64,000 bases of DNA from an uncultured Lentisphaeraceae bacterium (GTDB lineage: Bacteria > Verrucomicrobiota > Kiritimatiellia > RFP12 > UBA1067), in the NCBI GenBank assembly GCA_964579865.1, contig CAZOIS010000001.1:1084-65083 (forward strand), read 5' to 3'. The notes below the pieces were generated by a model that saw only the letters and a list, made by a program, of their open reading frames with translations, did no database searches and was not told where the DNA came from. Numbering within the stretch: the stretch's first letter is position 1; every line of letters begins with the position of its first letter. Made by a program: the position numbers and the translations under genes. Positions 1,499-27,780 of this stretch are shown here, piece after piece.

Positions 1499-1957
1499 TC
1501 AGGGCCGTTTCCCGCTTTGCTTGGCCGTCCGGGCACCATCGCTTTTGCGTCGCTGCTGCAAGAGGATCGCCAGCACGATCGCGGTTGCGGCCGCCAGCGA
1601 CAGTCGGATCAAACGCGCCGGGGCCTTCGGTCGGGGGCGTGGCGGCGTCTGCGCCGCCATCGGTTCCGCAGACAGCCGATGCAGCTCTTGGTCGGTCTGG
1701 CTGGACCGCATCCAGTCGTCCACGCGGTCCGCCGGCAAGGCGCGGATTTTCTCGGCCCGCTGCTTGGCCGCGGCGCGGCGGTTCTCCCGTTCGGCCAGCG
1801 GAACGGATCCTTGCGCCGCGGCGCGCGCATCCTCGTCCAGTTTGTCGCGGACCGCGAATTCGGGCACCAGGCTCTCCTCGACGATGGCATGCGCGGAGAG
1901 GCACACCCCGGCGACGGCGGCACACACGGTCAAGCGAAGGAAGGGGATCGTATTCAC
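1499..1957 (-). CDS. small hypothetical protein (signal-like N-terminus, C-terminal TM helix), last cistron of pseudopilin module 1
   Basis: In-frame GTG at 1957 makes a GTGA start/stop overlap with the upstream 578-aa gene (stop 1954..1956). VNTIPFLRLTVCAAVAGVCLSAHA N-terminus, charged middle, LIRLSLAAATAIVLAILL near the C-terminus. The rest of track ORF 1499..2446 overlaps the upstream gene out of frame. Confidence 0.4.
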   Translation of the reverse strand: MNTIPFLRLTVCAAVAGVCLSAHAIVEESLVPEFAVRDKLDEDARAAAQGSVPLAERENRRAAAKQRAEKIRALPADRVDDWMRSSQTDQELHRLSAEPMAAQTPPRPRPKAPARLIRLSLAAATAIVLAILLQQRRKSDGARTAKQSGKRP

Positions 1958-3690
1958 GGCAGCACCTCTTGCCAGCTGATCACGCGCGGCGTGGCGGGGG
2001 ACATCGGCAGGTAAATGAAGAAATCTACGCCGTCGGGACTCGTCGAGCCGAGGCGGATGTCCCAGTTGAACCTCACGGTCGAACCGTAGATGATCCCCTC
2101 GTCCCGGCAGATGAGCGCGCCGTTGATTTGGCATTGTCCGATCGTGCCCATCGTGGCGTGGTTGTTGTAGAGCACCGCATCGATTTGGGTGATGGCTGCT
2201 TTCTGCGCGTTCTTGCCGATCACATAATCGCCGGCCGCGCTCTCGTAATAGCGGCGGGCCGATTCGGCGGAGGGCAGCCACTTTTTGGTTTTTTTGTCGT
2301 AAACGTACTCCACTTTTTTCCCGGAGTCTTTGGCGGTGTAGTCCCCGCTGAAGGTCGAGTCGTAGCCGATCGAGGCGTCGGTGGGGTCGCTCGCGTAAGC
2401 ATTTACGAAGGGCGGTGTGATGTACTGCTGCACGCTGGCCATCCATGCGGAATTCGTGTAGTTCCCGAGCACGATGTTGCCCTTTGCGGCCAGCCCAAGC
2501 ATATCGCTCGATTCGTTCTTTTTCACGGTCTGAGTCGGATCATTGTCGGGCTTTGACCAAGAAGGCGGATTCTTATACGTCAGGTTGCCGACGATGTAGA
2601 TGTTCCGTCCCGAATAGATGGCGCCTTGTCCCGTGACCGTTCCTTTGATGATGACGTCGCTGTCGACCACGACGGGCCCGTCGATCTCGATCGGCTTCGA
2701 GGTCCCGTCCAGCACGATGCAGCCTTTGTCGGCCCCGTTGGCGAGGCCGGAGGGGCCGGCGCCGCTGTAGCAACCGTCCACCAAGACGTTGCCGCCCTGC
2801 TTGATGGTGGCGCCGGCGTTGTTGGCGATCTCCCGGTAGTCGGCCAGATCGCCGAGAAAGGGCATTTCCAGCGATTCCTGATAGGGCAGCAGTTCGTTTG
2901 ATCCCTCGTAGCCCATTTCCCACGTGTCGCCTCCGGCGGCGGTCGGGCTGGTCGGGCGCGTTTTCGGGTTGTTCTCGCTCCAGTACTGCGCCAGCGTAAA
3001 AAACTGGGCGGTTCCCGAAATGGCGCCCAGCGACCCCAGCTCGCTGTTCGCGGCCGCGTAGGCGGAGCCGTTGACCCAGGATTTCCCGTCCAGAAACAGG
3101 TTCCCGTTGGCGCGGATGTTGCCGTTCGCCGTCACGCCGCCGCCCATGAACCACCCGTAGTTGTTGACGAAGTAGGCGTAGTCGAAAACCGAGGAGCGCC
3201 GCAGCGCATACTCCACCGTTTCCTCGATGATTTTGGAAATGGTGACGCCCGAGGGCGATTTGCACGTGGCGGTGGCTCGCAAGGTCAGGCGCGCGAACTG
3301 TCGGATGGAACTGCTGGCGGAGCGTTCCATGTCCGTCAGCGAGACCGTCACGACGCAGCCGTTGAGCGTCTGGTTCTGCATCAGGTAGCTGATGTAGCCG
3401 GCGGTCCCGATGCTTTGGCCGGAGTGGCTGTCGAACCACGACAGGTTGTTCCACGTCGTCGGATAGGCGGCGTAGTAGGCCCTGAAGTCGCGGAAGATGT
3501 CGGCTTTCTCCTTGTCGAGCGCGGACTGGGCGCTCAGCCGGCACAGGGAGCCGGTGGTGTAGACGCCCGCCGCCCGGGTCCCGTTCAGAATGTATTCCAG
3601 CGCGCCGCCCGCGATGATGCCGACCACCAGCAGGCAGGCCACGACGACCGGCATGACAAATCCGGCGGACGGTTTAGACGTGTCGTTCAT
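1954..3690 (-). CDS. large PilX/GspK-like minor-pilin-family protein (578 aa)
   Basis: ATG 3690 preceded by GAAGGAG. N-terminal hydrophobic helix SAGFVMPVVVACLLVVGIIAGG lacks Glu+5, as in PilX/GspK-type proteins. Beta-helix-like G-x-[IV] repeats (VIIKGTVTGQGAIYSGRNIYIVGNL, INGALICRDEGIIYGSTV). Lies 12 nt downstream of a pseudopilin gene. Confidence 0.75.
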   Translation of the reverse strand: MNDTSKPSAGFVMPVVVACLLVVGIIAGGALEYILNGTRAAGVYTTGSLCRLSAQSALDKEKADIFRDFRAYYAAYPTTWNNLSWFDSHSGQSIGTAGYISYLMQNQTLNGCVVTVSLTDMERSASSSIRQFARLTLRATATCKSPSGVTISKIIEETVEYALRRSSVFDYAYFVNNYGWFMGGGVTANGNIRANGNLFLDGKSWVNGSAYAAANSELGSLGAISGTAQFFTLAQYWSENNPKTRPTSPTAAGGDTWEMGYEGSNELLPYQESLEMPFLGDLADYREIANNAGATIKQGGNVLVDGCYSGAGPSGLANGADKGCIVLDGTSKPIEIDGPVVVDSDVIIKGTVTGQGAIYSGRNIYIVGNLTYKNPPSWSKPDNDPTQTVKKNESSDMLGLAAKGNIVLGNYTNSAWMASVQQYITPPFVNAYASDPTDASIGYDSTFSGDYTAKDSGKKVEYVYDKKTKKWLPSAESARRYYESAAGDYVIGKNAQKAAITQIDAVLYNNHATMGTIGQCQINGALICRDEGIIYGSTVRFNWDIRLGSTSPDGVDFFIYLPMSPATPRVISWQEVLP

Positions 3691-3702: not shown

Positions 3703-4239
3703 TCACGGGTTCATGATCTGGACTTGCGCCTGACTCTGCTGCTTGTATTTCCGGGTGGAGACTTGAAGTGCGAGATCTAAATTGATGATGACCGTGCCGG
3801 TATCGTTCGACACGACTTGAAAAATCTCTTCTGTCTGAAAGACCGGCGTCCCGCCCGCGATCCATTTCGCCTTGCCCCGGTCCGCGGACAGCTTTTTGTC
3901 GCTGCCGAGGGCGAGGCGGTTCGAAGCCCCTTTCTTGGGTTTAAATTTCAAACCGTTGCCCCCCTTGTTCTTCTTGTTCTCCACCGACAATTCGCTCAGG
4001 CTGGCGTTCATGAGTCCGCCTTCTTCCGGGACGATGTTGAAGAGCAGTTTTTCGCGCAAGGCGCGCGACTGCAAGGTCAGTTCAAGGTCGGCCACGGTCT
4101 CTTCGAGCAACCGCTGCGACGAGACCAGCGCCGCGATGGCCTGGGACATGATGACCGCGGTCAGCGCGGTCGAGATCATCAGTTCGGTCAGCGTGAATCC
4201 GTTCCGCCGCCTTTTTCGTTTATTTGGTGCCACCTGCAT
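3703..4239 (-). CDS. prepilin-type N-terminal cleavage/methylation domain pseudopilin (178 aa)
   Basis: KRKRRRNG|FTLTELMISTALTAVIM has the class III signal peptide with Gly-1, Phe+1, Glu+5. GAGGA 6 nt upstream of the ATG. Confidence 0.85.
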   Translation of the reverse strand: MQVAPNKRKRRRNGFTLTELMISTALTAVIMSQAIAALVSSQRLLEETVADLELTLQSRALREKLLFNIVPEEGGLMNASLSELSVENKKNKGGNGLKFKPKKGASNRLALGSDKKLSADRGKAKWIAGGTPVFQTEEIFQVVSNDTGTVIINLDLALQVSTRKYKQQSQAQVQIMNP

Positions 4240-4249: not shown

Positions 4250-4753
4250 TCACGGGGTGTTCCGGAAGAGATTTCGCTCGACGCGGTGTCGCTCGATGAC
4301 ATAGGGGGTCGGCAGGCGGCCCCAGCCCCCGTCGGGAAGCGGCCACACGACATCGGTGATGATCTGCCAGTGCGTGACCGGCGTGCCCACGGGAAGGACG
4401 GACAGGCAATACGCGGCGTGCTGGCCCGCGAGCCAAGCGCTCGTGCGGTCTTCGGCCACGGTGCGCCATTCCGTATGATCAACGGCGTAATTGTCTTCGA
4501 ACCACGAGGTCTTCCGGTTGAAGGTTTCCCAGGCGACGTCGTAGGCGAGGGCGTCTGCCGCCAGACGCCACTTGAGGTTTGCCGCGCCCCGCCGGCAGAA
4601 GAGCAGGGCCTCGAACAGGATCAGAAACAGAAGGAGGCTGATGGCCGAAGCAAACACGACCTCGAACAACGTGAATCCGCCTCGCCCGCTGGGGAAAGAG
4701 GCGCTCTTCCGCAGATGTCCGTTCCTGCGGTTGCCGAAAGGCCACGGTTTCAT
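4250..4753 (-). CDS. prepilin-type N-terminal cleavage/methylation domain pseudopilin (167 aa)
   Basis: SGRGG|FTLFEVVFASAISLLLFLILF has the class III signal with Glu+5. Lies 10 nt upstream of the next pseudopilin gene. Confidence 0.85.
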   Translation of the reverse strand: MKPWPFGNRRNGHLRKSASFPSGRGGFTLFEVVFASAISLLLFLILFEALLFCRRGAANLKWRLAADALAYDVAWETFNRKTSWFEDNYAVDHTEWRTVAEDRTSAWLAGQHAAYCLSVLPVGTPVTHWQIITDVVWPLPDGGWGRLPTPYVIERHRVERNLFRNTP

Positions 4754-4963
4754 CCTCAGGACTTCCTCTCATATGCGCGGGACTCAGGCCGCCCCCGAAG
4801 AGGCGTCCTGCGCTGGGTGTTATGTGCCGGGTTCTTCATATAAACAGTAAACGACAGTATCAGGAAAAAGTTCATGCCGCGAGGAATTATTTCAAAATAA
4901 TCACATGATGGTCCCGTATATGAGTGAATGTGCCGCCTGTTGCGGAGGGGCGCGTGTTCCGGC

Positions 4964-5911
4964 TCACATGTCGTCCGGGACTTCGATGCGGATCGTGCGC
5001 GCCCGCATGTCCTTGAGATCCGTGGCCGCGACTTTCTTCTGGTCGAGGTCGCTGCCGTGCAGCGTGCCGGGGTCGGAGAAGAAGGGCACTTCGAAGCTCG
5101 CACCGCACGCGGGGCATTCTGAGGCGGATCCCGCCATGTCGGCCGGCGCCTCGATCTCCTGGCGGCAGTTTTTGCAGAAGAAGGAGAGCATGCGCTTGGA
5201 GGGCAGCGTCTTTTGGATGGCGGGCGCGCTGGCATTGTCAAAACCCAAGGCGGCCAGGTCGATGCGAATGGTTTGCCCGCCTTTGCTCTTCAGATCCCCT
5301 CCCGGGGTCGGGCTGGCCGCGGGGTCTGGGGCCGCATTGGGAGCGGCTGGCGCTGGAGCGGCGGCCGGTGCGGGGGCGGCGGCCGGTGCGGGGGCGGCGG
5401 CCGGTGCGGGCAAGGGCTTGCCGTGCAGCGTGCCGGGTTCGGATTCTGTGGGCACCGTGACGGACGCCCCGCAGGCGGGGCACTGGGCCTGTACGCCGGC
5501 GGCCGACAGTGGCGCCTCGATCTCCTGCCGACACTGCTTACAGCAGAACGAGACGGCGGTTGAGAAGTCTTCGTGAACCTGCGGAGGGACCTCCTTTGGG
5601 AGGACCGTGATCAGGTTGTCCGGGGTGGGTGTGACAGCGTTGCGCGCCTTTTTCAATACGCGCACCCGCAGGGTGTCGTGCTCAGCAATGAGAATCGTTT
5701 CTCCGGATTGAGGATTTTTCATCTTCCTCGCCTTGCGCTTGATAACATCCAGTCGGCAGATTCCCGGAATAGTGAATCCTTGGTCACACGCCTCCCGATA
5801 GGCGATATGCCGCAATGCTTCCAGTACAAAACGGGCTGATTTCTGCGTGATCCCCGTGCTAAAAGCCAATTCCCGAACCAAGGTCGTCTTGTTATAGGTC
5901 GTTTTTTTCAT
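4964..5911 (-). CDS. HU/IHF-fold DNA-binding domain fused to two zinc-ribbon modules
   Basis: aa 1-93 (MKKTTYNKTTLVRELA...GFTIPGICRLDVIKRKARKMKNPQSGETILIAEHDTLRVRVLKKARNAV) has the HU/IHF pattern including the R-x-x-R-N-P-x-T-G beta-arm. Two copies follow of F-C-K-x-C-R-Q-E-I-E-A-P...C-P-A-C-G-A-S...PGTLHG, separated by a (PAPAAA)n linker. Confidence 0.85.
   Translation of the reverse strand: MKKTTYNKTTLVRELAFSTGITQKSARFVLEALRHIAYREACDQGFTIPGICRLDVIKRKARKMKNPQSGETILIAEHDTLRVRVLKKARNAVTPTPDNLITVLPKEVPPQVHEDFSTAVSFCCKQCRQEIEAPLSAAGVQAQCPACGASVTVPTESEPGTLHGKPLPAPAAAPAPAAAPAPAAAPAPAAPNAAPDPAASPTPGGDLKSKGGQTIRIDLAALGFDNASAPAIQKTLPSKRMLSFFCKNCRQEIEAPADMAGSASECPACGASFEVPFFSDPGTLHGSDLDQKKVAATDLKDMRARTIRIEVPDDM
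5358..5411. repeat. 3 x 18-nt perfect/near-perfect tandem repeat (GCGGCGGCCGGTGCGGGG) encoding the (PAPAAA)n linker of the HU-zinc-ribbon protein
   Basis: Units at 5358..5375, 5376..5393 and 5394..5411. The last unit matches 17/18. Confidence 0.9.
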
Positions 5912-5949
5912 TGCATTTGCTCATTAGAAGGTTAATAGTTAAGTCTATA

Positions 5950-5965
5950 TGCAAGTAGTGTGCCA
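5950..5965 (-). promoter_or_regulatory. sigma54 -24/-12 promoter (TGGCAC-ACTAC-TTGCA) for the HU-zinc-ribbon gene and probably the downstream pseudopilin module
   Basis: The reverse complement of 5950..5965 matches the consensus TGGCAC-N5-TTGCA exactly. Lies about 40 nt upstream of ATG 5911. Confidence 0.65.
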
Positions 5966-5993
5966 ATACGTGGCTTTTGGGGCTGTGAATGTT

Positions 5994-6009
5994 TGGCATT
6001 AATTCTGCT
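5994..6009 (+). promoter_or_regulatory. sigma54 -24/-12 promoter (TGGCAT-TAATT-CTGCT) for the PAS-PAS gene
   Basis: Correct GG-N10-GC spacing, about 48 nt upstream of ATG 6057. Lies back-to-back with the 5950..5965 box. Confidence 0.55.
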
Positions 6010-6056
6010 TTTTAAGTTTTTTACGAAATGAATCTTGCGTTGGGGAACAGTCAATC

Positions 6057-7361
6057 ATGGCCATGAAATTCTGGTTTGGCAAAAAAGGTACGGAGCCGGA
6101 TGAGAGCGCGGGCGCGACCGGTGCCCTTCCCGTGGCGACGCCGAATCGTGCGGAAAGTGGCGCTCCGCCGTCTCCCGCAGAATCGGCGACGTCTGCCGTG
6201 CCGCAAGGTCCGGACGCTGTTTCCGTCGGCGGAAGCCCGTCTGCCGGAATCCCGCCGGCACCCCGTGCGGCGGTGGACGTGGGTAGCGCGGCGCCGCTGC
6301 CCTTGGCGGTGTCGCCGCAGACGGTGTCAGGGCCCGAGGCCGGAGTGAACAAGGGGAGCGCCTCTTCATCTCCTGCCGCGGAAACGGCCGACGTTCCGCG
6401 GACGGTACTGAAAGCGGTCGGAGGAATCGCCCCGGTCCGTTTGACGGCAGTGCACCCCGCAGGGAGTGGGCCGCAGACGGCGGGATCGGCCCCGGTCGCA
6501 GGTGCCGGACGCCCGGTTTTCGCGTTACGGCCGAAAAACGACTCGACGGCCGCGCCGGCCGCGGTGGCGGAAATAAAGCCTCCGACGGGGGCTCAGGCTG
6601 AAGGGGGCCCCGCTCCCGCCGGAAAAATGGCGGGCGGGCTTGGCGACGGGAACGAGCTGATCCGCCCGAAGACCGATCAGCGGGCGCTCTATTACCAGCT
6701 GATGAACGGTCTGTACGATGCGGTCCTGATCCTGGACGATCAGGGGCATGTCGTGGACTCCAGCAAGCGGGTGTCGGAACTCTTGGGGTATTCGCGCGAA
6801 GACACGTGGGACTTGGGCATTGATAAGATCATTACCGGGATGACGCGGCAGATGTTCGAGCATCTCAGGCGCAGTTTGTCAGAGAGCAACCATGTGCTGA
6901 TCGACGCGCGGTGCTCTCGCCAGGACGGCACCTCGTTCTCGGGCGAGGTTGGCGTGAGCACGCTCTCGCTGACCACCGGTTCAAATATCGTTTTCGCGAT
7001 CCGCAATGTGGAACGGCGCAAGACCGCGATGGAGGACCTCCGCAAGTGTCAGGCGGCGCTCGACGTCGCGTTGGTGCCGGTGTTTGTGTGTGATACCGAC
7101 GGGTTCTTCCAGATGGTCAACCAGACGCTGCTCGACGCGTTCGGAATACCGGATGCGGCCCAGGCGAAAAGCGTGCGGTTCGTGGATCTGTTGCCCGATG
7201 CGGCCCGCTTTTTCCTGAGGGCGGCCTGCGGCGAGAAGGTCCATGAGAAGATCAGCGTCGCGACGCCGGACGGGATGCCGCTCAAACTCGAAATCTCCTT
7301 GGCACCGGTGCAGAGCGGCTCGAACATCACGGGCGTCGCGGGGTCGATCCTGCAGATGTGA
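6057..7361 (+). CDS. PAS-PAS protein with about 200-aa Pro/Ala/Gly-rich disordered N-terminus, no output domain
   Basis: ATG 6057. C-terminal 230 aa contains two PAS-like modules (LYDAVLILDDQGHVVDSSKRVSELLGYSRED..., ALVPVFVCDTDGFFQMVNQTLLDAFG...). N-terminus is low complexity. Confidence 0.8.
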   Translation: MAMKFWFGKKGTEPDESAGATGALPVATPNRAESGAPPSPAESATSAVPQGPDAVSVGGSPSAGIPPAPRAAVDVGSAAPLPLAVSPQTVSGPEAGVNKGSASSSPAAETADVPRTVLKAVGGIAPVRLTAVHPAGSGPQTAGSAPVAGAGRPVFALRPKNDSTAAPAAVAEIKPPTGAQAEGGPAPAGKMAGGLGDGNELIRPKTDQRALYYQLMNGLYDAVLILDDQGHVVDSSKRVSELLGYSREDTWDLGIDKIITGMTRQMFEHLRRSLSESNHVLIDARCSRQDGTSFSGEVGVSTLSLTTGSNIVFAIRNVERRKTAMEDLRKCQAALDVALVPVFVCDTDGFFQMVNQTLLDAFGIPDAAQAKSVRFVDLLPDAARFFLRAACGEKVHEKISVATPDGMPLKLEISLAPVQSGSNITGVAGSILQM

Positions 7362-7452: not shown

Positions 7453-8928
7453 CTATTCATCGCGGTAAGGCTTGTTCTGTTCGAACATGGTGAGCCGCGT
7501 CGTGAGCGCGGCCGCGTGTGTCGTGTCGCCGTTCTGCGTGTAGATCGCGGCGGCCCGGCGGGTGGCGTCGAGCGCCCGGCGGAAAGAACCGTACTCCGCT
7601 TGGGCGGCGCCGAGCACCTCCAGGGCTGTCGCGTCTTTGTCGCGGAGCAGGTCGTTCGCTTTCTCGGCCAGTTTGACGGCCTCTTTGCCGTCCCGCAGTT
7701 CTGGGAACGGCGACGTCGCCAGGATCCACGCCACTTCGCACATCGCGCCGGTGTTCTTGGCGTCCTCGGCCAGGGCGGCCCGGGCAGTCTGCAAGAGTTC
7801 GCGCGATTTGGCCATACGCCCTTGGCGCAACGCCTCTTCGGCCTTTTTCTTGAAGTCCAGACTGATGCCGGCGAGCCGGAATTTGGTCTCGATGTCCACT
7901 TTGTCCACGGCCTTGATGTAGGCGTCTTCAGCGGTGATGATGCCTTTGGCCGCCAGGCGCGTGAGTTCGTCGCTGAAGGTCTGCATGCCCGCCGTTCGGC
8001 CGGTCTGCATCACCGACGGGATCATGTGGGTCTTCGCCTCGCGGATCAGGGCCGAGACCGGCGTGTTGACGACCAGCACTTCGAAGGCGGCGATCCGCCC
8101 GCCCTCGATCTTTTTGCAGAGGGTTTGGGCCACGACGCCTTTGAGCGTATCGGCCAGCATGGAGCGGATCTGGTTCTGCTGTCCGGCCGGGAATTTGTCG
8201 ATCATGCGTTCGACGGTCGACGCCGCGCTGTTGGTGTGCAGGGTCGCGAAGACCAAGTGACCCGTTTCGGCGGTCTCGATGGCGATCTCCATGGTCTCAA
8301 GGTCGCGGATTTCGCCGATGAGCACGATGTCCGGGTCTTCGCGCAGGGCGGCGCGCAGGGCGCGGGCAAAGCTCGTTGTGTCGCGGTGGACCTCGCGCTG
8401 GTTGATGATGCACTGGTGCGGCGTGTGGACGAACTCGATCGGGTCTTCGATCGTGATGATGTGCTCGTTGCGCTGTCGGTTGATGTAGTCGATCATGGCC
8501 GACAGGGTGGTGGACTTGCCGCTGCCGGTCGGGCCGGTGACGATGACGAGGCCTTTTGAAAGCATGCAGAACTCGCGCATGACGTCCGGCAGGTTGAGGT
8601 CCTCGAAGGTCGGGATCCGCTCGGGAATCACGCGCAGGGACGCGCTCCACCCGCACATGTCGCGGTACCCGTTGACGCGGAAACGCGCCGTGCCGGGAAT
8701 TTCGTACGCGCAGTCGGTGTCCCACTCGTGCTCGAGCTGCCCGATGTTCTCCTCCGGCATGATCTCTTTCACGAGGTCGAACACCTGCTGGCTGGAGAGC
8801 GCCGGCTCGCCGGCGATCGGCGAGAGGGTGCCGTGCACGCGGATGTATGGCGTGCGGCCTGCGCAGAGGTGCAGGTCGCTGCCTTCGCCGGAAACCAGCG
8901 GGACGAGAAAGCGGTCAATGGAAGCCAT
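7453..8928 (-). CDS. pilT: PilT-type twitching-motility retraction ATPase with about 140-aa C-terminal TPR-like extension
   Basis: Walker A GPTGSGKSTT, IITIEDPIEF, REDPDIVLIGEIRD, GHLVFATLHT, and the PilT-specific ALIREAKTHMI (AIRNLIRE-like) motif. The protein is 491 aa, against roughly 345 aa for typical PilT proteins as I recall them. The tail (aa about 350-491) has TPR character. Confidence 0.9.
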   Translation of the reverse strand: MASIDRFLVPLVSGEGSDLHLCAGRTPYIRVHGTLSPIAGEPALSSQQVFDLVKEIMPEENIGQLEHEWDTDCAYEIPGTARFRVNGYRDMCGWSASLRVIPERIPTFEDLNLPDVMREFCMLSKGLVIVTGPTGSGKSTTLSAMIDYINRQRNEHIITIEDPIEFVHTPHQCIINQREVHRDTTSFARALRAALREDPDIVLIGEIRDLETMEIAIETAETGHLVFATLHTNSAASTVERMIDKFPAGQQNQIRSMLADTLKGVVAQTLCKKIEGGRIAAFEVLVVNTPVSALIREAKTHMIPSVMQTGRTAGMQTFSDELTRLAAKGIITAEDAYIKAVDKVDIETKFRLAGISLDFKKKAEEALRQGRMAKSRELLQTARAALAEDAKNTGAMCEVAWILATSPFPELRDGKEAVKLAEKANDLLRDKDATALEVLGAAQAEYGSFRRALDATRRAAAIYTQNGDTTHAAALTTRLTMFEQNKPYRDE

Positions 8929-8962: not shown

Positions 8963-11900
8963 CTAGGGGTTTTTCACGCGGAAGAAGCCTTGCTTGGCCT
9001 GCGCGGGGATCTCGGCTCTCAGCAGGATCTGGCGGCGTCCGTCCAGGGTGGTGCCGAGGATCTCGCGGTAGACGACCGGCAAGGTCTGCCAGTCAGCCGC
9101 CGAACCGGTCAGCGAGGGGGTCCACTCCAAGGTGTAGTCGACCTGGAGATAGCCCTCCACCATGAGCGCGACGGATCCGCCTGTCGCGGCGGCGTCGCCC
9201 GCCGCGCTGCTGACGCTGCGGCTCGCCATGACCGCCGGCGTGATCGACAGCGCCGTGACGCGCGCCTGCGCCGAAGCCGGCGGGGTCGGCAAGGTCGACG
9301 CCAGCACGAAGAGGGCGCCCAGCTTCACGTCCCGTTCGGGCATCAAGAAGGTGACGATCGGGCCGCTGTTTGTCAGGACATAGACATCGCCGACCCAGCC
9401 GACGAAGACATAGCCGTCGCCCGGAGCTCGGGCTTCCACGGTCAGCGCCGTCCCCTGCGGGTAGATCATGCGGTCGCGCGCCTCTTCGATGACGTCGGGC
9501 AGTCCGGCGAAGATCGAGGGGATCACATAGACCGTGTTCGTCGCGTCTGAGAGCGTGAGCTTGGAGGTCGGTGTCCAGAACCCGTCGCGCATCCAGGCGC
9601 AGTCCTTGAAGACGCTCACGTCGATGTCTTTCGTGTAGTCGAACAGGAAGTCGTGCCGCGTCTTCCGGGCGGTCTCGCGGTCGGATAACCCGTTCTTCAC
9701 CACGACCGAAGCGGTGGACCAGCTCTCCTCTTTGCCGGAAATCCAGCATTCGGGCTTGTCGTCCACCTCGCCCTTGTAATCCAGCCAGAAGTCCAGACGG
9801 TCGGCCACCGCTTCGCTGCAGGAGGCCCACTGCCACATCAGGATGCCCGTGCCGAAATTGGTCACGCTGAGCTTGGCGTGCTGGCTGTTGTTGACGTAGC
9901 CGAACTGGCCGAAGCGGATCGCGCTGTTGCCGCCCGGCGCGTCGTTGACCCACGTCACGCCGCCGTCCTCGCCGTCGAACGTCGCGATCGAGGACTCGCC
10001 GTTGACGTCCGGGACGTCCGGGGCGCAGCCCGTCGCGTCGACCATCGCCTGCGGGATCCAGATCAGACGGTCGAGCGTGATGGTGTTGTCGCGGACGAAA
10101 TAGCTGCCGTCGCGCTGGAAGCGCAGCGAGATCGAGGTGGCGCCCGAGACGAAGTTCGTCATCGCCTTCCACGCGTTGTTTTTGCCGGAGACGGCGCCGA
10201 CGAGCGTGGTGCCGTTGACGATGACTTCGATCTCGTCATACGCGGTTTCCGCGTTGCCCTTCCACCAGAACAGCAGCACGCCGTCGCCAGTGAAGTTTGT
10301 CGTGGTCAGCTCCACGTATTGTCCCGCGCCGACCGAAGGGCCGCCGAATTTGACGACGGGGTCGTCGTAGCGGACGCCGCCGTTGGACTCGGCCACGATG
10401 CCGGTCGGGGAGAACGCCGCGATGTCGAGTTTCTGACCGGCGATGGTGAGCGCGCCCGCCAGTTTCTCGGCGGCGGTTTGCGGACGGTAGACGGCGGTCA
10501 CGGTGACGCTGTTGGAGGGCATCGTGAAGGTCGTGATGGCCGCATTGGTGTTGGCAAAGGCCGCGCCGTTGGTCGAGACCCAATAGTTGAAGGTCTGCCA
10601 CAGCGGCGCCGCGTCGGCGATGATGCGCACTTCCGCGCCGGCGGGGTAAGCGCCTTCGGGCTCGCCCGTGCTCTCGTGGACCGCGTTCGGCCAGGCGCCG
10701 CCGTCGCGGCCGTTGATCATGGTCACGGTGAGGGTTTGCTGCCGGTAGAGCGCCCGCACGGTGATGTCGCGCGACGGCATCACCAGACTGGTGGCGGCGG
10801 CGTCCGGCTCGGCGAGCGTCTCCATGTCGCCGTCCCACTGGTCGAACTCCATGCCCGCCGGTGCCGGGTCGGCGGCGATGGCCACGGTTGAGCCGACTGC
10901 GTAAGTGCCGCTGCCTGAACCGTTCTGCACCGTGAGCGCGTAGGCGAACTGCGTCCAGGTGACGCTGTCGACCCAGCCGCAGTCGGAACCGACCTGAGCG
11001 GCGGAATCGTCCTTCGCGTAGATCCACTGCACGGCGTGTTCGGCGACGGAGAGCAGGTTGGTCTCGAACAGGAGCCAGCCGGATTTGTTGCCGCTGATGC
11101 GCGCGGCCTCGGCCCCGTCGATCATGAGTATCAGGAAATCATGATCCCGCTCAGAGGAGGTGCGCCAGTGGAAGGAGAGCTTGCCGCTGCCGGAATAGAC
11201 GGTGCCCAGCGTGACGGACGCGCTGTTGGAGACCGTGCCGTCGCCGCCGAGGCGGACCGCGAGGTTGCTGACCGCGCCTGCGGGCGGGGCGGCGTCAAGC
11301 AACACCGCATCGAACCCGTCCGGCGCGAAGAGGGTCTTCCCGGGCGTGCCCAGCTCGGCCGCCAGCGCGTCGGGGATCCAGAGGACCTTGCCGATCGTGG
11401 CGGTGTCGCTGCCCGCGCGGTCGCTGACGTCTTTCACGTACGACCATTGAAGCGTGTGCGGTCCGTCGCCGGCGACGAAGTTGGTCAGCACGCCGGACTG
11501 GGTGCCGCTGGCCGAGAAAACGTTCGTGCCGTCGACCGAGAAGCGGAAGAAGTCGTAGTCTTTCTCGCTGTTGACCTGCCACGGGAAGATCACGGTTCCG
11601 GCGTTGGTGTAGACCGTCGTGAAGAAGGCCGTCTGGTTGTCGCCGATCGGGCCGAGGGTCACGTGGTCGAGCCCGATGTTGGCGGCGGTGAGGTTGCCGA
11701 AGGTGACGGGCGGAGGAACGCCGAGCACCTGCTGGATCAGCTCATCCACGGGCACGGCGGTGAAGGTCGCGGTGACCGTGATGTTGCTGGGGCCCATCAG
11801 CACGGTGGTGGCGCTGGCCAGCGGGTCCGCGACGGTCGAGATGTCGCCGGTCCATCCGTCGAAGGTGTACCACAGGGCCGGGAGGTTCGCCGCGATGGCC

Positions 11901-14900
11901 ACGGTTGTTCCGCTGACGTACGACCCGCTGCCGGAGCCGTCCTCGACGGTCAGCGTGTAGTGCGGCACCGGCGGCGCGTTGGTGGTGTAGGTCGCGGTCA
12001 AGGCAAGGTCGTAAGCCGGCATCTGGAAGGTCGGGTGGAAATTCGTGATCCCCGCGCCGAGAACCGCGAGCGCGTTGGTGCCGGTCCAGCGGTCGAAGTA
12101 ATAGCCCGCCGCCGGCGGATCCGCGAGGATCGTCACGGCCGAGTTGGCGGCGAAGTAGCCCTCCTGACCGCCGCTGCCGCTGAGGATCGTGCCCTGGGTC
12201 AGGGTCAGCTTGTGGGTGGAGGTCCAGACCACGTTGCGCAGCCAGCCGCAATCCTCGAACATGCTGACGTCGTTATCCTTCTGATAGCGGAAGCTGCAGA
12301 TGTTCATCGTCGTGTCTTTTCCAGCGAGCAGCTCGGGCGTGACGGCGAACGACGAACTGTACCATGAGCCGTCGAGCTTGCCGCTGATCCAGTTGGTCTT
12401 GGCGCCGTCGATGTAGAAGCCGAGCGTGTCGTAGGCGCCCTCGCTCCGGGCCGTCCATTCCCACGTGAGGACGCCGGTGCCGAAGTTGGTGAAGGCGACC
12501 TGCGCGCAGAGGTTGTTGGTGACGTAGCCGAAGCGGCCGAGGCGGATGGCGTCGCCGCCGCCGGGCGCGTCGTGCACCCAGGCCACGCCGCCGTCCTCGC
12601 CCTCGAAATCGTTCTCCTCTTTGTCGCGGTCGCGTCCCAGGAAGAGCGGGTCATATTCGGCGTTGATGTTCGGGATGCAGGCGCCGGCGCCGAGTTCGTC
12701 GACCATGTCTTGCGGAATCCAGGTGACGCGGTCGAGCAGCAGGATGTTCTGGTGCACGTAGTAGGTGTCGTCGCGCGTGTAGCGCCAGGTGAGGTTCGAG
12801 ACGTTGGAGAGCCGGGCGTATCCGCACCACCATATTTTCGTGCTGTCGACGGTGTTGGTGTCCTTCATCGAGAAGACGGCCGAGTACGGGAAGCCGTTCA
12901 CTTCCAACTGGACGCCGTCGACGTCCTCCTCGGTGTCGCCGTGCCACCAGAACATCAGAATGCCGCTGCCGGTGAAGTTCGTGGTCGAGAGATACACGTT
13001 CTGGCCGGGGCCGACCGAGGGCCCGCCCATCTGGACGACCGGATCGTTGTAGCGGATGCCGCCCGTGGCTACGGCGACGACGCCGGTGGGCGAGAAATCG
13101 GTCACGGCGAGCGGCTGCCCGCGGATGGTGAAGGCGCTCGCCAGCTTTTCCGCCGCGGTCTGCGTCCGGTAGGTGGCGGTGACGGTGACGTCGTTGCCCG
13201 GCATCGTGAACATCGTGACGTCGGCGTCCGCGTCCGCGAAAACAGCGCCGTTGGTGGAGACCCAGCCGTCAAAGGTCTGCCCGAACGGGGCCGGGTCGGC
13301 GACGATGCGCACGAGCGCGCCGGGCGGATAGTCGCCCTCGGGCTCGCCGGTGCTCTCGTGGACGGGGTTGGGCCAGGCGCCCGCGTCGCGACCGTTGACG
13401 ACCGTGACGTTCATGGTCAGGACCTTGTAGAGGGCGCGGACCGTGATGTCCTTGCCGGGCATGACCAAGGTGGTGGCGGCGGCGAGCAGATTCGAAACCG
13501 TGTCGGTGTCGCCGCTCCAGCTGTCGAATTCCATGCCCGCGGCGGGCGCATCGGCCGTGATGCCCACGGTCTGGCCGGCCGGATACGTGCCGCTGCCGGA
13601 GCCGTTCTCCACGACCAGCGTGTAGGTGAAGAGCGACCACGCCGCGTTGTCGATCCACACGGCGTCGGCGCCGTTGAAGCCCGAGGCGTTCTTGGCATAG
13701 GACCAGCGGACAACGTGGGCGCCCGTGGTCATCAGGTTGGTGGCGAAGGAGACCCAGCCGGTCGCTTTGCCGCTCAGGCGCGCCGCTTCGACGCCGTCGA
13801 TCGTGCAGACCGCGACGTCCGAGAGCTGGTTCGAGGTGCACCAGTTGAAGGTGAACAGGCCCGAGCCGTTGAGCACGACCTCGACGCTGTTGGTGGTGCC
13901 GTCGGCGAAATAGGGGATGCCGTTGCCGTCCAGCCCGCCCAGTTTGACGGCCGCGCCGTCCACCGCGCCTGCGGGCGCGGCGGTATCGAGGAAGCAGGCC
14001 TCAAAGCCGTAGGGGAAGGGCAGGGGATCGCCTGGGCGGCCGTCGGGGAAGTTGATCGGCTGGCCGGGGACGCCGAGTTCGGCGGCGAGCGGCTCGGGAA
14101 TCCACGTGACCGCGCCGACCCAGCCGGCGTCTTCCAGATCGTATCCGGCGCTGTCCTTGCTGTATTCCCAGCGGATCGTGTGCGCGCCGGCGCCGGCGAC
14201 GTACTGCGTGACGACGCAGGTCGGGACGTTGCCGGAAATGGCGTTCGTCTCGACGCCGTCGATGATGAGCGCCAAGCGGTCGCAGCCCGCCTCGCTGCTG
14301 ACGCGCCACGGGAAGAGCAGCGTGCCCGCGTTGGTGTAGACGCAGGAGAGGAAGGCGGTCTGACCGTCACCGATCCCGCCGAGCCTGACCTCGGGGACGC
14401 TGGGGTCGACGTCGGGGAAGTCGATGTTGTCAAACGTGACGGGCAGGGGAATTCCGAGGATCCGGCTCAGGTACTCGTCCAGCGACAGCGCCTGATAGGT
14501 GGCCGTGACGGTGATGTTGTGGTCGGGCATGACGAGCGTCGTGTTGGTGGCGGAGGTGTTCGCCACGGTGGCGGTGTCGCCGATCCAGCCGTTGAAGACG
14601 ATCCACGCGTTCGTGGGGTTCGCGCCGATGGCGACCACCGTGCCGTTCGAATAGCTGCCGCTGCCGCTGCCGTTGACCACGGTCAGGTCGTTGATCGACT
14701 TCGCGCGCTCGTAGGCGCCCATGTCGACGATGGACCCCTGAATGCGCGCGCCGCCCGCGGCGTCGCGGGGCCCGTACGCATACGCGTTGTTGCCGGCATT
14801 GATGCAGGGCGAGGTGTCCGACAGCAGGAAGGTGCCGGCCTTGAAAAGCGGATCGGTGATGAGGTTGTTGCCGCCGTCGCGGGTCTCGAGGTAGTCGTTG

Positions 14901-15670
14901 AGGCCGGGGGCGGGGGAGGTGCACGACGAGATGAAGTACGATTTGTCGATGCTATGGATGTCGGACGGATAGTTCTCGTCATTCTGCGCGCCGTTGAACA
15001 TCACGATCGAGTTGCGAACGTGGCAGCTGAAGACGCCGGCGCCGCTGGTGGTGTTGACGAAATTGCTGACGACCGTGCAGTTGTTGAGGGTGGCCCAGTG
15101 GGCGCCGCCGCCGCGGTAGGCGCCGCACTCGGTGATGATGCAGTTGTTGACCTGCGGTGTCCGGTTGCCGTCGGGCGCATAGACGCCGCCGCCGTTTTTC
15201 ACCGGATTGGCCATGTCGCTGTCGCCGACGGAGGCCGCCGCGTTCGCATACCCGTATCTGAGCGTGAAGCCGTCAAGAATGCCGTCGCTCATGTAGACGC
15301 AGCGGACGCAGCCGGCGCCGAAGCGCTGGGGCGGATTCGAGAAGTCCGGTGTGCCTTCGATGACGGTTGTTGCCGCGCCGTCGGTGCTGCGCACCAGGAT
15401 GGCCTTGGTGATCACGACGCGGGAATACCCAGAGGCGGGCAAACTGGTGTGGGTTCCTGTCGCGTAGGTGCCGGGGGCGACCAGGACGGTGTCGCCGGCC
15501 GCGGCGGCGTTGACGCCGCGCTGGATGGTCAAGAACGGATCGGTGTCGGACCCCGTGGCCGTGTCGCTGCCGGAGGGCGCGACGTAGTAAGTTGCGGCTT
15601 GCAGTGCGGAGGCCATGAGGGCAAGCGCAACAGGGGCAACGCACCGTACGCGTTTGAGAAATGTTTTCAT
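8963..15670 (-). CDS. giant secreted protein (2,235 aa): N-terminal right-handed beta-helix, 8 InlB-B-type repeats alternating with about 130-aa beta-sandwich modules, C-terminal GFFRV domain
   Basis: AAGGAG 6 nt upstream of ATG 15670. Signal peptide MKTFLKRVRCVAPVALALMASALQA. DUF1565-like cap YYVAPSGSDTATGSDTDPFLTIQRGVNAAAAGDTVLVAPGTY. Repeats follow the pattern NGSGSG.Y..G..V.I.A.P..G..F..W.GD. One frame is uninterrupted over 6.7 kb. Confidence 0.9.
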   Translation of the reverse strand: MKTFLKRVRCVAPVALALMASALQAATYYVAPSGSDTATGSDTDPFLTIQRGVNAAAAGDTVLVAPGTYATGTHTSLPASGYSRVVITKAILVRSTDGAATTVIEGTPDFSNPPQRFGAGCVRCVYMSDGILDGFTLRYGYANAAASVGDSDMANPVKNGGGVYAPDGNRTPQVNNCIITECGAYRGGGAHWATLNNCTVVSNFVNTTSGAGVFSCHVRNSIVMFNGAQNDENYPSDIHSIDKSYFISSCTSPAPGLNDYLETRDGGNNLITDPLFKAGTFLLSDTSPCINAGNNAYAYGPRDAAGGARIQGSIVDMGAYERAKSINDLTVVNGSGSGSYSNGTVVAIGANPTNAWIVFNGWIGDTATVANTSATNTTLVMPDHNITVTATYQALSLDEYLSRILGIPLPVTFDNIDFPDVDPSVPEVRLGGIGDGQTAFLSCVYTNAGTLLFPWRVSSEAGCDRLALIIDGVETNAISGNVPTCVVTQYVAGAGAHTIRWEYSKDSAGYDLEDAGWVGAVTWIPEPLAAELGVPGQPINFPDGRPGDPLPFPYGFEACFLDTAAPAGAVDGAAVKLGGLDGNGIPYFADGTTNSVEVVLNGSGLFTFNWCTSNQLSDVAVCTIDGVEAARLSGKATGWVSFATNLMTTGAHVVRWSYAKNASGFNGADAVWIDNAAWSLFTYTLVVENGSGSGTYPAGQTVGITADAPAAGMEFDSWSGDTDTVSNLLAAATTLVMPGKDITVRALYKVLTMNVTVVNGRDAGAWPNPVHESTGEPEGDYPPGALVRIVADPAPFGQTFDGWVSTNGAVFADADADVTMFTMPGNDVTVTATYRTQTAAEKLASAFTIRGQPLAVTDFSPTGVVAVATGGIRYNDPVVQMGGPSVGPGQNVYLSTTNFTGSGILMFWWHGDTEEDVDGVQLEVNGFPYSAVFSMKDTNTVDSTKIWWCGYARLSNVSNLTWRYTRDDTYYVHQNILLLDRVTWIPQDMVDELGAGACIPNINAEYDPLFLGRDRDKEENDFEGEDGGVAWVHDAPGGGDAIRLGRFGYVTNNLCAQVAFTNFGTGVLTWEWTARSEGAYDTLGFYIDGAKTNWISGKLDGSWYSSSFAVTPELLAGKDTTMNICSFRYQKDNDVSMFEDCGWLRNVVWTSTHKLTLTQGTILSGSGGQEGYFAANSAVTILADPPAAGYYFDRWTGTNALAVLGAGITNFHPTFQMPAYDLALTATYTTNAPPVPHYTLTVEDGSGSGSYVSGTTVAIAANLPALWYTFDGWTGDISTVADPLASATTVLMGPSNITVTATFTAVPVDELIQQVLGVPPPVTFGNLTAANIGLDHVTLGPIGDNQTAFFTTVYTNAGTVIFPWQVNSEKDYDFFRFSVDGTNVFSASGTQSGVLTNFVAGDGPHTLQWSYVKDVSDRAGSDTATIGKVLWIPDALAAELGTPGKTLFAPDGFDAVLLDAAPPAGAVSNLAVRLGGDGTVSNSASVTLGTVYSGSGKLSFHWRTSSERDHDFLILMIDGAEAARISGNKSGWLLFETNLLSVAEHAVQWIYAKDDSAAQVGSDCGWVDSVTWTQFAYALTVQNGSGSGTYAVGSTVAIAADPAPAGMEFDQWDGDMETLAEPDAAATSLVMPSRDITVRALYRQQTLTVTMINGRDGGAWPNAVHESTGEPEGAYPAGAEVRIIADAAPLWQTFNYWVSTNGAAFANTNAAITTFTMPSNSVTVTAVYRPQTAAEKLAGALTIAGQKLDIAAFSPTGIVAESNGGVRYDDPVVKFGGPSVGAGQYVELTTTNFTGDGVLLFWWKGNAETAYDEIEVIVNGTTLVGAVSGKNNAWKAMTNFVSGATSISLRFQRDGSYFVRDNTITLDRLIWIPQAMVDATGCAPDVPDVNGESSIATFDGEDGGVTWVNDAPGGNSAIRFGQFGYVNNSQHAKLSVTNFGTGILMWQWASCSEAVADRLDFWLDYKGEVDDKPECWISGKEESWSTASVVVKNGLSDRETARKTRHDFLFDYTKDIDVSVFKDCAWMRDGFWTPTSKLTLSDATNTVYVIPSIFAGLPDVIEEARDRMIYPQGTALTVEARAPGDGYVFVGWVGDVYVLTNSGPIVTFLMPERDVKLGALFVLASTLPTPPASAQARVTALSITPAVMASRSVSSAAGDAAATGGSVALMVEGYLQVDYTLEWTPSLTGSAADWQTLPVVYREILGTTLDGRRQILLRAEIPAQAKQGFFRVKNP
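9326..14686 (-). repeat. tandem duplication of an about 880-910-aa, eight-domain super-module inside the giant gene
   Basis: aa 329-1237 align colinearly with aa 1238-2115. Examples: LTVVNGSGSGSYSNGTVVAIGANP / LTVEDGSGSGSYVSGTTVAIAANL; NGRDAGAWPNPVHESTGEPEGDYPPGA / NGRDGGAWPNAVHESTGEPEGAYPAGA; TAAEKLASAFTIRGQPL / TAAEKLAGALTIAGQKL; EGEDGGVAWVHDAPGG / DGEDGGVTWVNDAPGG. Confidence 0.85.
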
Positions 15671-17693: not shown

Positions 17694-17713
17694 CTGATGC
17701 TCCTGTTTCGTGT

Positions 17714-18223: not shown

Positions 18224-18250
18224 GTGGATGACGCTCCGGCTGGATAGCGG

Positions 18251-20570: not shown

Positions 20571-20586
20571 AGCATAAATGATGCCA
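20571..20586 (-). promoter_or_regulatory. candidate sigma54 promoter (TGGCAT-CATTT-ATGCT) abutting the pilM start
   Basis: Correct spacing and orientation, but the -12 GC is only 13 nt from ATG 20558. This implies a virtually leaderless mRNA or a different start codon. Confidence 0.35.
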
Positions 20587-20810: not shown

Positions 20811-20826
20811 CGGCATGATTTGTGCT
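20811..20826 (+). promoter_or_regulatory. candidate sigma54 promoter (CGGCAT-GATTT-GTGCT) abutting the PAS-DHp start
   Basis: Correct GG-N10-GC spacing. The -12 GC is 15 nt before ATG 20841, so the leader would be about 4 nt and there is no SD. Confidence 0.35.
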
Positions 20827-20840: not shown

Positions 20841-21974
20841 ATGAAGACCAACGAAAAATCCCAGACGATCAAGATCGATATCCGTTCCCTGGGATATGGT
20901 CGGTTGCCGGGGACGGACGCGCAGCGCGGCACGGCCCCCGTGGATTATTTCGACAAGCTGGATTACCGGTTTTTGTTCGAGCACGCCTATGACGCGATTC
21001 TGCTGGCGGACGGCGCGGGGAAAGTGCTGGCGGCCAATGCGCGTGCGACGCGGTTCTTCGGATACGAGGAGGTCGGCCTGACGGGGCTGCCTCTCCATGC
21101 GCTGGTGGCCGGCGTGACCGACGCGCTGCTCGCCGAGATCAGGACGGTGATCGCCGAGGGCCGCTACATGCGCATTCAGGCGTTTGCGGTGCACAAGGAC
21201 GACGTCTTCACTGCGGTCGAGATCGTGGCGATGGGCAACGGCACCCATTCGCCGGATCCGGTCTGTTATCTGGTCCGGGACATCCAGTCCCGCTGGCGGG
21301 CGGAACAGAAGCTGCTTTCGGCGTATCACGCCATGGACAACACCGACGCCGGCATCGGCATCGCCGACATGCGGGGCGTCATCACCTATGCCAACCGCAT
21401 GATGACCGAACTGCTTGCCGGAGGGGATGAGGCCGCGGTCGTGGGCCAGCATCTGGACGCCTGGTTCGACCGCAAAGCCGTGATCAATCCGCTGCTGGCA
21501 AACATCCGGGCGGGCGAAGGCTGGACGGGCGAGCAACGGACGATGGCCCGCGAGAAGACCGGCTGGCTGATGATTTCCGCGGTTCCCGACATCAATGAGG
21601 AGAGCGAGCTGTGCGGCATGGTGCTCTCGGTCCGCGATACGGCCGAGCGGCGGCGGGCGGAGATCGCCGAGCAGCAGGCCGAGCGCAACCGGGTGATGGC
21701 GGAGAGCCTTTCCCAGGCCTGCCATTCGCTGGGGCAGCCGGCCACCGTGCTGCTGACCGGCATCGAGATCCTCAAGCTGGAGGGGGACAAGGACGAGGCG
21801 CTGCGGCGCGAGATGGTCGATTTGTGTTACGGGGCGGTCATCCAGCTGCGCGACCTGCTGCAGCAGATGAACGCCAAACGGCTGCAGGGCGGCAGGGGCG
21901 AGGAGAAGGCCGGGGAAGCCGCGCCGGCCGTGTCGCCGCCGCCCGGGGCAGCAGACGAGGAGCGTGTGCGATGA
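20841..21974 (+). CDS. PAS-PAS-DHp signalling protein lacking a kinase ATPase (HATPase_c) domain
   Basis: ATG 20841 (MKTNEKSQ...). Two PAS modules (FEHAYDAILLADGAGKVLAANARATRFFGYEE..., DNTDAGIGIADMRGVITYANRMMTELL...). A coiled HisKA-like segment follows (MAESLSQACHSLGQPATVLLTGIEIL...LRDLLQQM), then the protein ends. Its stop overlaps the next ATG (ATGA at 21971..21974). Confidence 0.8.
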   Translation: MKTNEKSQTIKIDIRSLGYGRLPGTDAQRGTAPVDYFDKLDYRFLFEHAYDAILLADGAGKVLAANARATRFFGYEEVGLTGLPLHALVAGVTDALLAEIRTVIAEGRYMRIQAFAVHKDDVFTAVEIVAMGNGTHSPDPVCYLVRDIQSRWRAEQKLLSAYHAMDNTDAGIGIADMRGVITYANRMMTELLAGGDEAAVVGQHLDAWFDRKAVINPLLANIRAGEGWTGEQRTMAREKTGWLMISAVPDINEESELCGMVLSVRDTAERRRAEIAEQQAERNRVMAESLSQACHSLGQPATVLLTGIEILKLEGDKDEALRREMVDLCYGAVIQLRDLLQQMNAKRLQGGRGEEKAGEAAPAVSPPPGAADEERVR

Positions 21975-27727: not shown

Positions 27728-27780
27728 AGATGGGCAGGGGTTGCGGCGGCGGGTGTAATTCAGCCTGAAAAGAGCAGAAG

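Follow-up and report, generated by a model that had tools for sequence, protein, structure and literature searches.

HUZ, an HU-fold protein with duplicated zinc ribbons, a sigma54-type promoter and a neighbouring PAS-PAS gene in Kiritimatiellia

What role does an HU-type DNA-binding domain play when most of the protein that carries it lies outside that domain? A gene from an uncultured Lentisphaeraceae bacterium raises this question. It lies in a 64,000-nucleotide (nt) stretch of DNA (assembly GCA_964579865.1, contig CAZOIS010000001.1, positions 1,084 to 65,083 of the forward strand), called the window here, whose own numbering is used throughout. The gene occupies 4964..5911 on the minus strand and is an open reading frame (ORF) of 315 amino acids (aa) with an ATG start and the N-terminus MKKTTYNK; the encoded protein is named HUZ. 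Its parts follow in the order HU domain, zinc ribbon 1, PAPAAA linker, TIRID motif, zinc ribbon 2 and TIRIE-PDD tail, and the plain label “HU family DNA-binding protein” hides two thirds of it. HUZ is new in that a known DNA-binding fold appears here in an architecture, a regulatory context and a partnership that have not been described. The domains, their duplication and conservation, the gene neighbourhood and the promoter motifs are solid observations. Our preferred answer, a tentative one, is that HUZ bends DNA in the manner of HU, is under sigma54 control and is coupled to PAS sensors through its ribbons and short motifs.

Domain architecture of HUZ

The N-terminal part of HUZ (aa 1-95, 5627..5911, minus strand) is an HU/IHF-fold DNA-binding domain with a net charge of +12 and the arm RKARKMKNPQSGE. 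The Pfam profile PF00216 (Bac_DNA_binding) matches aa 7-93 with an E value of 7.3e-13 (49 bits against a cut-off of 22.4), and it also matches every HUZ homologue tested. In the AlphaFold2 model, a single chain built from 115 homologues, the predicted local distance difference test (pLDDT) exceeds 90 over aa 1-95, and this part has the two helices, the beta-sheet with its extended arm and the C-terminal helix of the HU/IHF fold. The top Foldseek matches of this model in the PDB are all HU/IHF proteins (E 4e-6 to 1e-3, template modelling (TM) score 0.65-0.84); the best are Anabaena HU (1p71, E 4e-6, TM 0.79) and Bacillus anthracis HU (3rhi, TM 0.84), and IHF structures match at a TM of about 0.7. 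A sequence search of the PDB likewise places B. anthracis HU first (E 1.4e-5), with the arm aligned to RAARTGRNPQTGE. The arm pattern R-x-x-R-x-x-R/K-N-P-x-T-G is present, and in 115 sequences R59, R62 and P67, the intercalating residue, never vary. The initial annotation had read an HU/IHF-like domain at aa 1-93 and had proposed profile searches and structure prediction; these agree with it, the N-terminal domain modelling as an HU fold within the single chain.

HUZ is nevertheless not a standard member of either class. The NCBIfam equivalog model for housekeeping HU-beta scores 17.3 bits against a cut-off of 157, and that for IHF-alpha scores 16.1 against 111, and both identities were rejected. 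Profile, fold and arm residues all place HUZ firmly in the HU/IHF superfamily, yet it is no HU or IHF equivalog. By analogy with HU, it presumably dimerises and bends DNA. The HUZ sequence has no signal peptide and no membrane segment.

Two copies of a small module follow the HU domain. They are 59% identical over 54 aa (E 2e-21), and the two module sequences quoted when the duplication was first proposed occur exactly in HUZ. Zinc ribbon 1 covers aa 117-164 (5420..5563, minus strand) with C124, C127, C144 and C147, a net charge of -2 and a pLDDT above 90; zinc ribbon 2 covers aa 239-286 (5054..5197, minus strand) with C246, C249, C266 and C269 and also has a net charge of -2. The eight cysteines, two CxxC pairs per ribbon, are invariant in the 115 homologues. 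AlphaFold models each module as four short strands in a zinc-ribbon fold with a pLDDT of about 90. Individual Pfam zinc-ribbon models mostly stay below threshold in the window protein and reach their cut-offs in some homologues. On the basis of the models and the cysteine pattern, the modules are predicted to be Cys4 zinc ribbons that bind zinc, which would give two zinc ions per chain. A PDB sequence search with the module returns LysW only (E 0.034), and Foldseek of the module against solved structures gives no match below E 0.2. Neither the window nor the flanking DNA of related loci yielded a further copy of this ribbon type.

The charge of the ribbons bears directly on what they might bind. 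The HUZ ribbons might bind nucleic acid and so give the protein further contacts to DNA or RNA, used in bridging or in recognising a sequence. Such contacts are made by many zinc ribbons, in ribosomal proteins and in subunits of polymerases, and Foldseek gives weak matches to RPA12 and to zinc ribbons of the ribosome. However, both ribbons are acidic across the family (mean net charge -1.6 for ribbon 1 and -2.2 for ribbon 2, never above +1), QEIEAP and SEPGT, the motifs conserved on the surface, have an acidic or neutral character, and the best-fitting solved analogues, LysW and ZitP, bind proteins. The family-wide acidity argues against nucleic-acid binding and for protein binding. Nucleic-acid contacts through the ribbons are the least probable of the explanations considered here, and the HUZ ribbons probably bind protein rather than DNA.

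The segments around the ribbons are flexible. The PAPAAA spacer, described at first as separating the two modules, is present and lies between zinc ribbon 1 and the TIRID motif, within a disordered Pro/Ala linker (aa 165-209, 5285..5419, minus strand; pLDDT below 50) whose length and sequence vary among homologues. It is encoded by an 18-base-pair tandem repeat at 5343-5410 (3.8 copies, 92% matches by tandem repeat finder). Linker length varies even among close relatives, the 92%-identical protein P0001 being 7 aa shorter, which suggests repeat-driven change through this tandem repeat.

A T-I-R-I-[DE] motif follows each module, as initially annotated, and is invariant or nearly so at both sites. 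Short motif 1, KGGQTIRIDLAALGF, spans aa 210-224 (5240..5284, minus strand); around its TIRID core (aa 214-218), I217, D218 and L219 are invariant and T214, I215 and R216 are conserved in at least 90%. Short motif 2, MRARTIRIEVPDDM, lies in the C-terminal tail (4967..5053, minus strand) with its TIRIE core at aa 306-310, and R305, T306, R308, I309, P312 and D313 of this TIRIE-PDD tail are invariant. The linkers and both motifs are predicted to be disordered, although the full-length model marks residues 306-308 as strand. Docking of the TIRIE tail on its own zinc ribbon 2 was considered and rejected: AlphaFold of the isolated module leaves the tail undocked, with a pLDDT of 60-67 and no strand. 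Disordered and undocked within the chain, the TIRI motifs look like short linear motifs for intermolecular contacts.

PAS partners and divergent sigma54 boxes

Which proteins might such ribbons and motifs contact? The neighbourhood of HUZ was analysed by tblastn and hidden Markov model searches over 81 loci, and its conserved partner is the neighbouring PAS-PAS gene, not the pilin genes. In the window this partner is PAS1 (6057..7361, plus strand; 434 aa), in which Pfam and NCBIfam recognise two PAS domains and no output domain. PAS1 starts with MAMKFWFGKK, followed by a disordered linker of about 200 aa and the two PAS domains. Across clades, the N-terminal motif M-x-KFWFGKK is conserved, and a variable disordered linker of about 100-200 aa again leads to two PAS domains. 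Nearly every two-module locus has a PAS gene beside HUZ; in total it is adjacent in about 52 loci and is divergent and upstream in most of them. In five distant loci (L047, L058, L064, L067 and L068) it follows HUZ on the same strand after 4-45 nt, and in L034, L035, L039 and L040 it lies about 630-710 nt downstream. Among relatives with a single ribbon module, one has a divergent PAS neighbour and another (P0199) has none.

A second PAS-PAS protein, PAS2 (20841..21974, plus strand), is encoded within the type IV pilus-like cluster of the window, and its N-terminus, MKTNEKSQTIKIDIRSLGYGR, contains a TIRID-type motif. The PAS2 start KSQTIKIDIR(S/L)LGYGR is the same short motif as HUZ aa 210-224, and it is kept in the orthologues in L010 (665-2095, minus strand) and L018 (675-1889, minus strand). 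By our own estimate, a bare six-residue TIRI-type pattern is expected about once by chance in the window. A chance match between PAS2 and HUZ is unlikely because the similarity extends over 15 residues, occupies a terminal position and is conserved in orthologues. PAS2 also has a DHp-like C-terminus. A sigma54-like box at 20811-20826 ends about 15 nt before the PAS2 ATG, from which an unusually short leader would result.

The constancy of these motifs could have a different cause. The invariant Thr of (Q/R)-T-I-(R/K)-I-(D/E) might be a phosphosite (pT-x-x-I), and phosphorylated HUZ and PAS2 would then recruit FHA proteins, for example FHA sigma54 activators. Thr and the Ile at +3 are indeed invariant in all three motifs, and a gene for an FHA-AAA+-HTH (helix-turn-helix) sigma54 activator lies about 2.35 kb from HUZ in L027, L028, L030, L032, L036, L037 and the P0119 contig, on the downstream side in the six loci. 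This linkage is, however, confined to one closely related clade and therefore counts as a single event. Those activators carry a Fis-type HTH and need no DNA adaptor; a role of HUZ as the DNA adaptor for FHA activators that lack a DNA-binding domain was rejected on the same observation. The activator encoded in the window has a receiver domain instead of FHA, the whole 6-10-residue motif is invariant, beyond what FHA recognition needs, and no Ser/Thr kinase was identified. Recruitment of FHA proteins by a phosphorylated motif is thus very improbable.

The intergenic DNA between HUZ and PAS1 links both genes to sigma54. The HUZ box, TGGCACACTACTTGCA, is a -24/-12 element at 5950-5965 on the minus strand; it starts 54 nt upstream of the ATG, with 38 nt between box and ATG. 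It is the only perfect match in the window to the sigma54 consensus TGGCAC-N5-TTGCW, in agreement with the perfect promoter initially reported ahead of the gene. A divergent sigma54-like box for PAS1, TGGCATTAATTCTGCT, lies at 5994..6009 on the plus strand. Related loci were scanned with a relaxed sigma54 pattern, for which the background is 0.013 matches per 200 nt. The pattern occurs upstream of HUZ in 37 of 68 loci, mostly at -52 to -60 from the ATG and at about -100 in one clade; most loci with a HUZ of at least 54% identity have the box at -52 to -60. An opposite-strand box faces the PAS gene in 26 of the 68 loci, and the spacer between the two divergent boxes varies from about 26 to 70 nt. 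In 25 aligned intergenic regions, the conserved blocks are the two sigma54 boxes and the PAS start codon region only. A box at -56 also precedes a single-module relative without a PAS neighbour. From these sequence patterns we infer that the divergent sigma54 boxes drive the HUZ and PAS1 genes, with predicted transcription starts near 5939 (minus strand) and 6020 (plus strand).

Expression of the region was looked for in public sequencing runs. Contigs from the wastewater metatranscriptome run X11 cover HUZ (4930-5924) as well as the promoter with the 5' part of the PAS gene (5931-6165) at a word depth of 5-22, and none lies over 4334-4929. Because the X11 contigs also cover the inter-promoter region, DNA carry-over or read-through is possible. 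The raw-read runs X21 and X22 gave no reads.

In the mechanism that we tentatively prefer, HUZ would be a cytoplasmic protein, presumably a dimer, transcribed from its sigma54 promoter. The basic N-terminal HU domain would clamp and bend DNA as HU does, and the C-terminal half would form a flexible protein-interaction array instead of a second DNA-binding surface. This array would consist of the two acidic Cys4 ribbons and the strand-like motifs QTIRIDLxxLG and RTIRIE-PDD-hydrophobic, carried on disordered linkers. HUZ would act with the adjacent PAS-PAS sensor, which has no output domain of its own. The ribbons might dock the terminal motifs of the sensors, that is M-x-KFWFGKK of PAS1 and the TIKID-type N-terminus of PAS2, and the PAS sensors would thereby be tethered to, or modulate, the DNA-bending protein. 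HUZ would then be an architectural co-factor that responds to signals; its most likely sites of action are sigma54 promoters, among them the divergent pair from which HUZ itself and PAS1 would be transcribed. An architectural role at sigma54 promoters had been suggested in the initial annotation and is plausible. IHF and HU assist the DNA looping between activator and polymerase at sigma54 promoters, and an NtrC-type sigma54 activator with a receiver domain is encoded in the window.

A more specific and rather doubtful extension is that the ribbons are receptors for the TIRID/TIKID and KFWFGKK terminal strands. Such a docking code would allow output-less PAS sensors to control sigma54 promoter geometry without a transcription factor DNA-binding domain, and the same unit would be reused as an adaptor beside a glycosyltransferase. 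The proposed docking set includes the peptides MAMKFWFGKKG (PAS1), KSQTIKIDIRSLGYG (PAS2), QTIRIDLAALGF and RTIRIEVPDDM, and the shared short motifs yield directly testable interaction predictions.

Several observations weigh against a PAS-coupled role of HUZ at sigma54 promoters. The 25 aligned intergenic regions contain no conserved activator site or HU/IHF-type site between the divergent promoters. As HU proteins mostly bind DNA irrespective of its sequence, a role of HUZ at particular promoters is an assumption. The sigma54 box was not found in the most distant clades, including the rumen group, and no PAS neighbour is present in L030, L048, L052, L063, L066, L081 or the single-module P0199. 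The motifs remain undocked from the ribbons in the single-chain AlphaFold models. Finally, neither the transcription starts nor a joint transcript with the pilin genes can be read from the metatranscriptome contigs.

HU and IHF are usually seen as stand-alone DNA benders of about 90 aa, and the HUZ family, if the proposed mechanism is true, would show signal-responsive DNA architecture. HUZ would also offer a first handle on gene regulation in Kiritimatiellia, which are largely uncultured and occur in wastewater, sediments and guts.

Distribution of the family and the pilus neighbourhood

HUZ is not an isolated fusion. A search of 5.8 billion proteins yields at least 195 relatives; among the 120 listed, most are full-length, with 49-92% identity. 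Those that carry a name are called “nucleoid DNA-binding protein” or “HU family DNA-binding protein” and nothing else. In species-representative genomes, 78 HUZ loci were found, nearly all in bins of Kiritimatiellia or other members of the Planctomycetes-Verrucomicrobia-Chlamydiae group. The contig DAOPZC010000084.1, from a Kiritimatiellia genome bin, is identical to the window, and the sequencing runs that contain the window sequence are wastewater and activated-sludge metagenomes. The survey of the fusion and its neighbours that the initial annotation had called for thus finds a common fusion to which no function is assigned. Its statement that no characterised protein with this architecture is known also holds: the survey of HU architectures (PMC5499826) does not list a zinc-ribbon fusion to HU, and literature searches gave nothing on the HUZ family.

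The module itself has a wider distribution than the two-module family. Searched on its own and without a profile, module 2 matches 1307 clusters among 1.84 billion cluster representatives. The unit of zinc ribbon plus TIRIE motif occurs in three settings: the two-module family, single-module HU proteins (PF00216 in 9 of 10 tested) and free-standing proteins of 73-109 aa. The unit is an autonomous module, since proteins of about 85 aa consist of it alone. In eight loci (L072-L075 and L077-L080), the free-standing ribbon gene lies directly upstream of a glycosyltransferase gene. One of these genes (L075, 10019-10273) encodes an 85-aa protein with one zinc ribbon and the tail MKSRTIRIELPD, and it belongs to the same bin as the window; in L072, a PAS paralogue is divergent from the free-standing ribbon gene. 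Matches to the ribbon only include proteins in which it is repeated 5-8 times. HUZ variants from rumen and gut bins (L050-L057 and L059) reach about 415 aa, the HU domain and zinc ribbon 1 being separated by roughly 120-150 additional residues. No sigma54 box was detected in these loci. This group keeps a divergent PAS partner starting with MKFWFGKKEE, though L052 is among the loci listed without a PAS neighbour.

Some of these relatives suggest a simpler role. Single-module proteins are found in housekeeping contexts, next to MutL or DprA, and the HU domain of HUZ is canonical. HUZ might then be a paralogous nucleoid HU whose extension tunes compaction or bridging, for example through ribbon-TIRI self-association between dimers, with no partner or promoter specificity. 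Head-to-tail self-association is conceivable because each module has both a ribbon and a motif, and HU proteins with C-terminal extensions are known, mycobacterial HupB among them. Against this stand the sigma54 box, kept at a constant distance from the start codon and uncommon for a bulk nucleoid protein, the tight and persistent linkage to PAS genes in both orientations, and an extension that is acidic or neutral instead of basic. In addition, a canonical short HU gene coexists with the HUZ family in at least one related bin (L059). A purely nucleoid function is therefore unlikely.

The genes downstream of HUZ suggest another role. Three prepilin-type or minor-pilin-like genes follow on the minus strand at 4250-4753, 3703-4239 and 1954-3690, and an N_methyl motif is recognised in this cassette; the first two have the prepilin motif G|FTL(F/T)E, and the third (578 aa) has an N-terminal hydrophobic segment without Glu5. 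The gap between HUZ and the first of them (4754..4963, minus strand) is 210 nt long, as initially measured. It contains no sigma54-like box, again as reported, no sigma70-like or terminator-like site was found on the HUZ strand, and it has no unusual RNA structure (z 0.28).

The claim that HUZ heads a pseudopilin operon finds no support in the form first given. The gap is only 12-15 nt in L010, L011, L023 and L042 and about 130-210 nt in two loci, and the four short gaps make co-transcription of HUZ with the pilin genes plausible in this lineage. It is not a family trait, since prepilin-type genes follow HUZ in 6 of the 55 loci with enough flank, and Rnf or unrelated genes follow in the remaining ones. 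An Rnf/Nqr subunit gene stands directly after HUZ in six other loci, and in the window that gene lies past the pilin cassette. The three-gene minor-pilin cassette is a later insertion downstream of HUZ in a few lineages and is probably read from the same promoter.

HUZ might instead serve the pilus specifically, either as a dedicated regulator of pilin genes or as a link between DNA and the machinery of the type IV pilus or of secretion, as in DNA uptake. In the window it lies between a PilT-like ATPase gene and the three minor-pilin genes, in a cluster with a secretin gene, PilC- and PilB-like genes and the NtrC-type activator. The PilT-like gene flanks the PAS/HUZ pair in 16 of 51 loci, within the close subclade only; pilin genes lie within 12-15 nt in the four relatives just named, and one single-module relative adjoins dprA. 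The ZitP zinc finger, a weak structural match to the ribbons, regulates pilus biogenesis (PMC5182063). However, pilin genes follow HUZ in only those 6 of 55 loci, and within 8-10 kb most loci are free of pilus genes. Without a signal peptide or membrane segment, HUZ cannot meet incoming DNA outside the cytoplasm. A pilus-specific role is improbable, and the direct DNA-to-pilus link raised as an alternative in the initial annotation finds little support.

Other features of the window place HUZ in a larger setting. The PilT-like secretion ATPase (T2SSE family by Pfam; 7453..8928, minus strand; 491 aa) is extended at the C-terminus by about 120 aa that ordinary PilT lacks and that look helical or TPR-like by eye. 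A 2235-aa ORF with internal repeated segments (8963-15670, minus strand) lies between this gene and the secretin gene (15753-18818).

Eight sigma54-like boxes are present in the window, as three divergent pairs and two single boxes. Besides the pair between HUZ and PAS1, a second pair combines 20571-20586 (minus strand) with 20811-20826 (plus strand), and a third combines 32279-32294 (minus strand) with 32345-32360 (plus strand); the single boxes are at 27712-27727 and 56123-56138, both on the minus strand. These two further pairs sit inside the type IV pilus-like cluster with its secretin, PilC- and PilB-like genes and NtrC-type activator. One divergent pair heads the PilB-like ATPase gene (30529-32295), and the cluster resembles a sigma54 regulon of back-to-back promoters.

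Two hexamer arrays lie at 25903-25948, (ATCCTA) x7.7, and at 27779-27812, AGGATTAAGATT x2.8. The suggestion that they are targets of HUZ is not borne out: they are 20 kb away, and no ATCCTA occurs near the HUZ promoter. The second array occupies the position expected for an enhancer or bending site, 52-85 nt ahead of the sigma54 box at 27727-27712 and shortly past the NtrC-type activator gene (27938-29326).

Comparison with known systems

The closest solved sequence and fold to the HUZ ribbon is LysW, with an E value of 0.034 and a root mean square deviation of 1.5-1.8 Å over 31-35 residues, a match that is not significant. LysW resembles the ribbon in being a small acidic zinc ribbon with a flexible conserved C-terminal tail that is recognised by other proteins. 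Identity of the HUZ ribbon with LysW/ArgW was rejected: the model NF041070 scores 32 bits against 75, the EDWGE tail is missing (HUZ ends in PDDM), and no LysX, LysY, LysZ, LysJ or LysK was seen among the neighbours. ZitP of Caulobacter offers a second parallel, as its zinc finger is a protein-docking ribbon that binds PopZ (PMC5182065), and ZitP controls pilus biogenesis (PMC5182063). The likeness to HUZ lies in a small zinc ribbon used for protein docking (Foldseek E 0.63, not significant), whereas ZitP lacks an HU domain, sits in the membrane and contains DUF3426. We do not claim membership of HUZ in the LysW or ZitP family.

Extended HU proteins are a nearer comparison for the whole architecture. 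The C-terminal extension of mycobacterial HupB consists of basic PAKK repeats. In the HU-HIG and HU-CCDC81 clades, HU domains gain C-terminal interaction or tethering modules on disordered linkers (PMC5499826). The HU fusions listed in the same survey include winged helix-turn-helix and immunoglobulin domains, Gly-rich tails, transmembrane segments with SPOR or LysM, and coiled coils (PMC5499826). The modules of HU-HIG, HU-CCDC81 and HupB differ from those of HUZ in having no zinc ribbon and no PAS partner or sigma54 link.

Bacterial HU (1P71, 3RHI) is like HUZ in its fold and in an arm with an intercalating Pro and flanking Arg (TM 0.79-0.84). It differs in being a bulk nucleoid protein of about 90 aa without an extension, whereas HUZ adds 220 aa of ribbons, linkers and motifs; we know of no HU that depends on sigma54. 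IHF has the same fold but is an alpha/beta heterodimer that binds a specific sequence and carries no fused sensor-docking modules. The likeness to IHF extends to function, as the role proposed for HUZ, itself in what looks like a sigma54 regulon, would be the classical role of IHF at sigma54 promoters.

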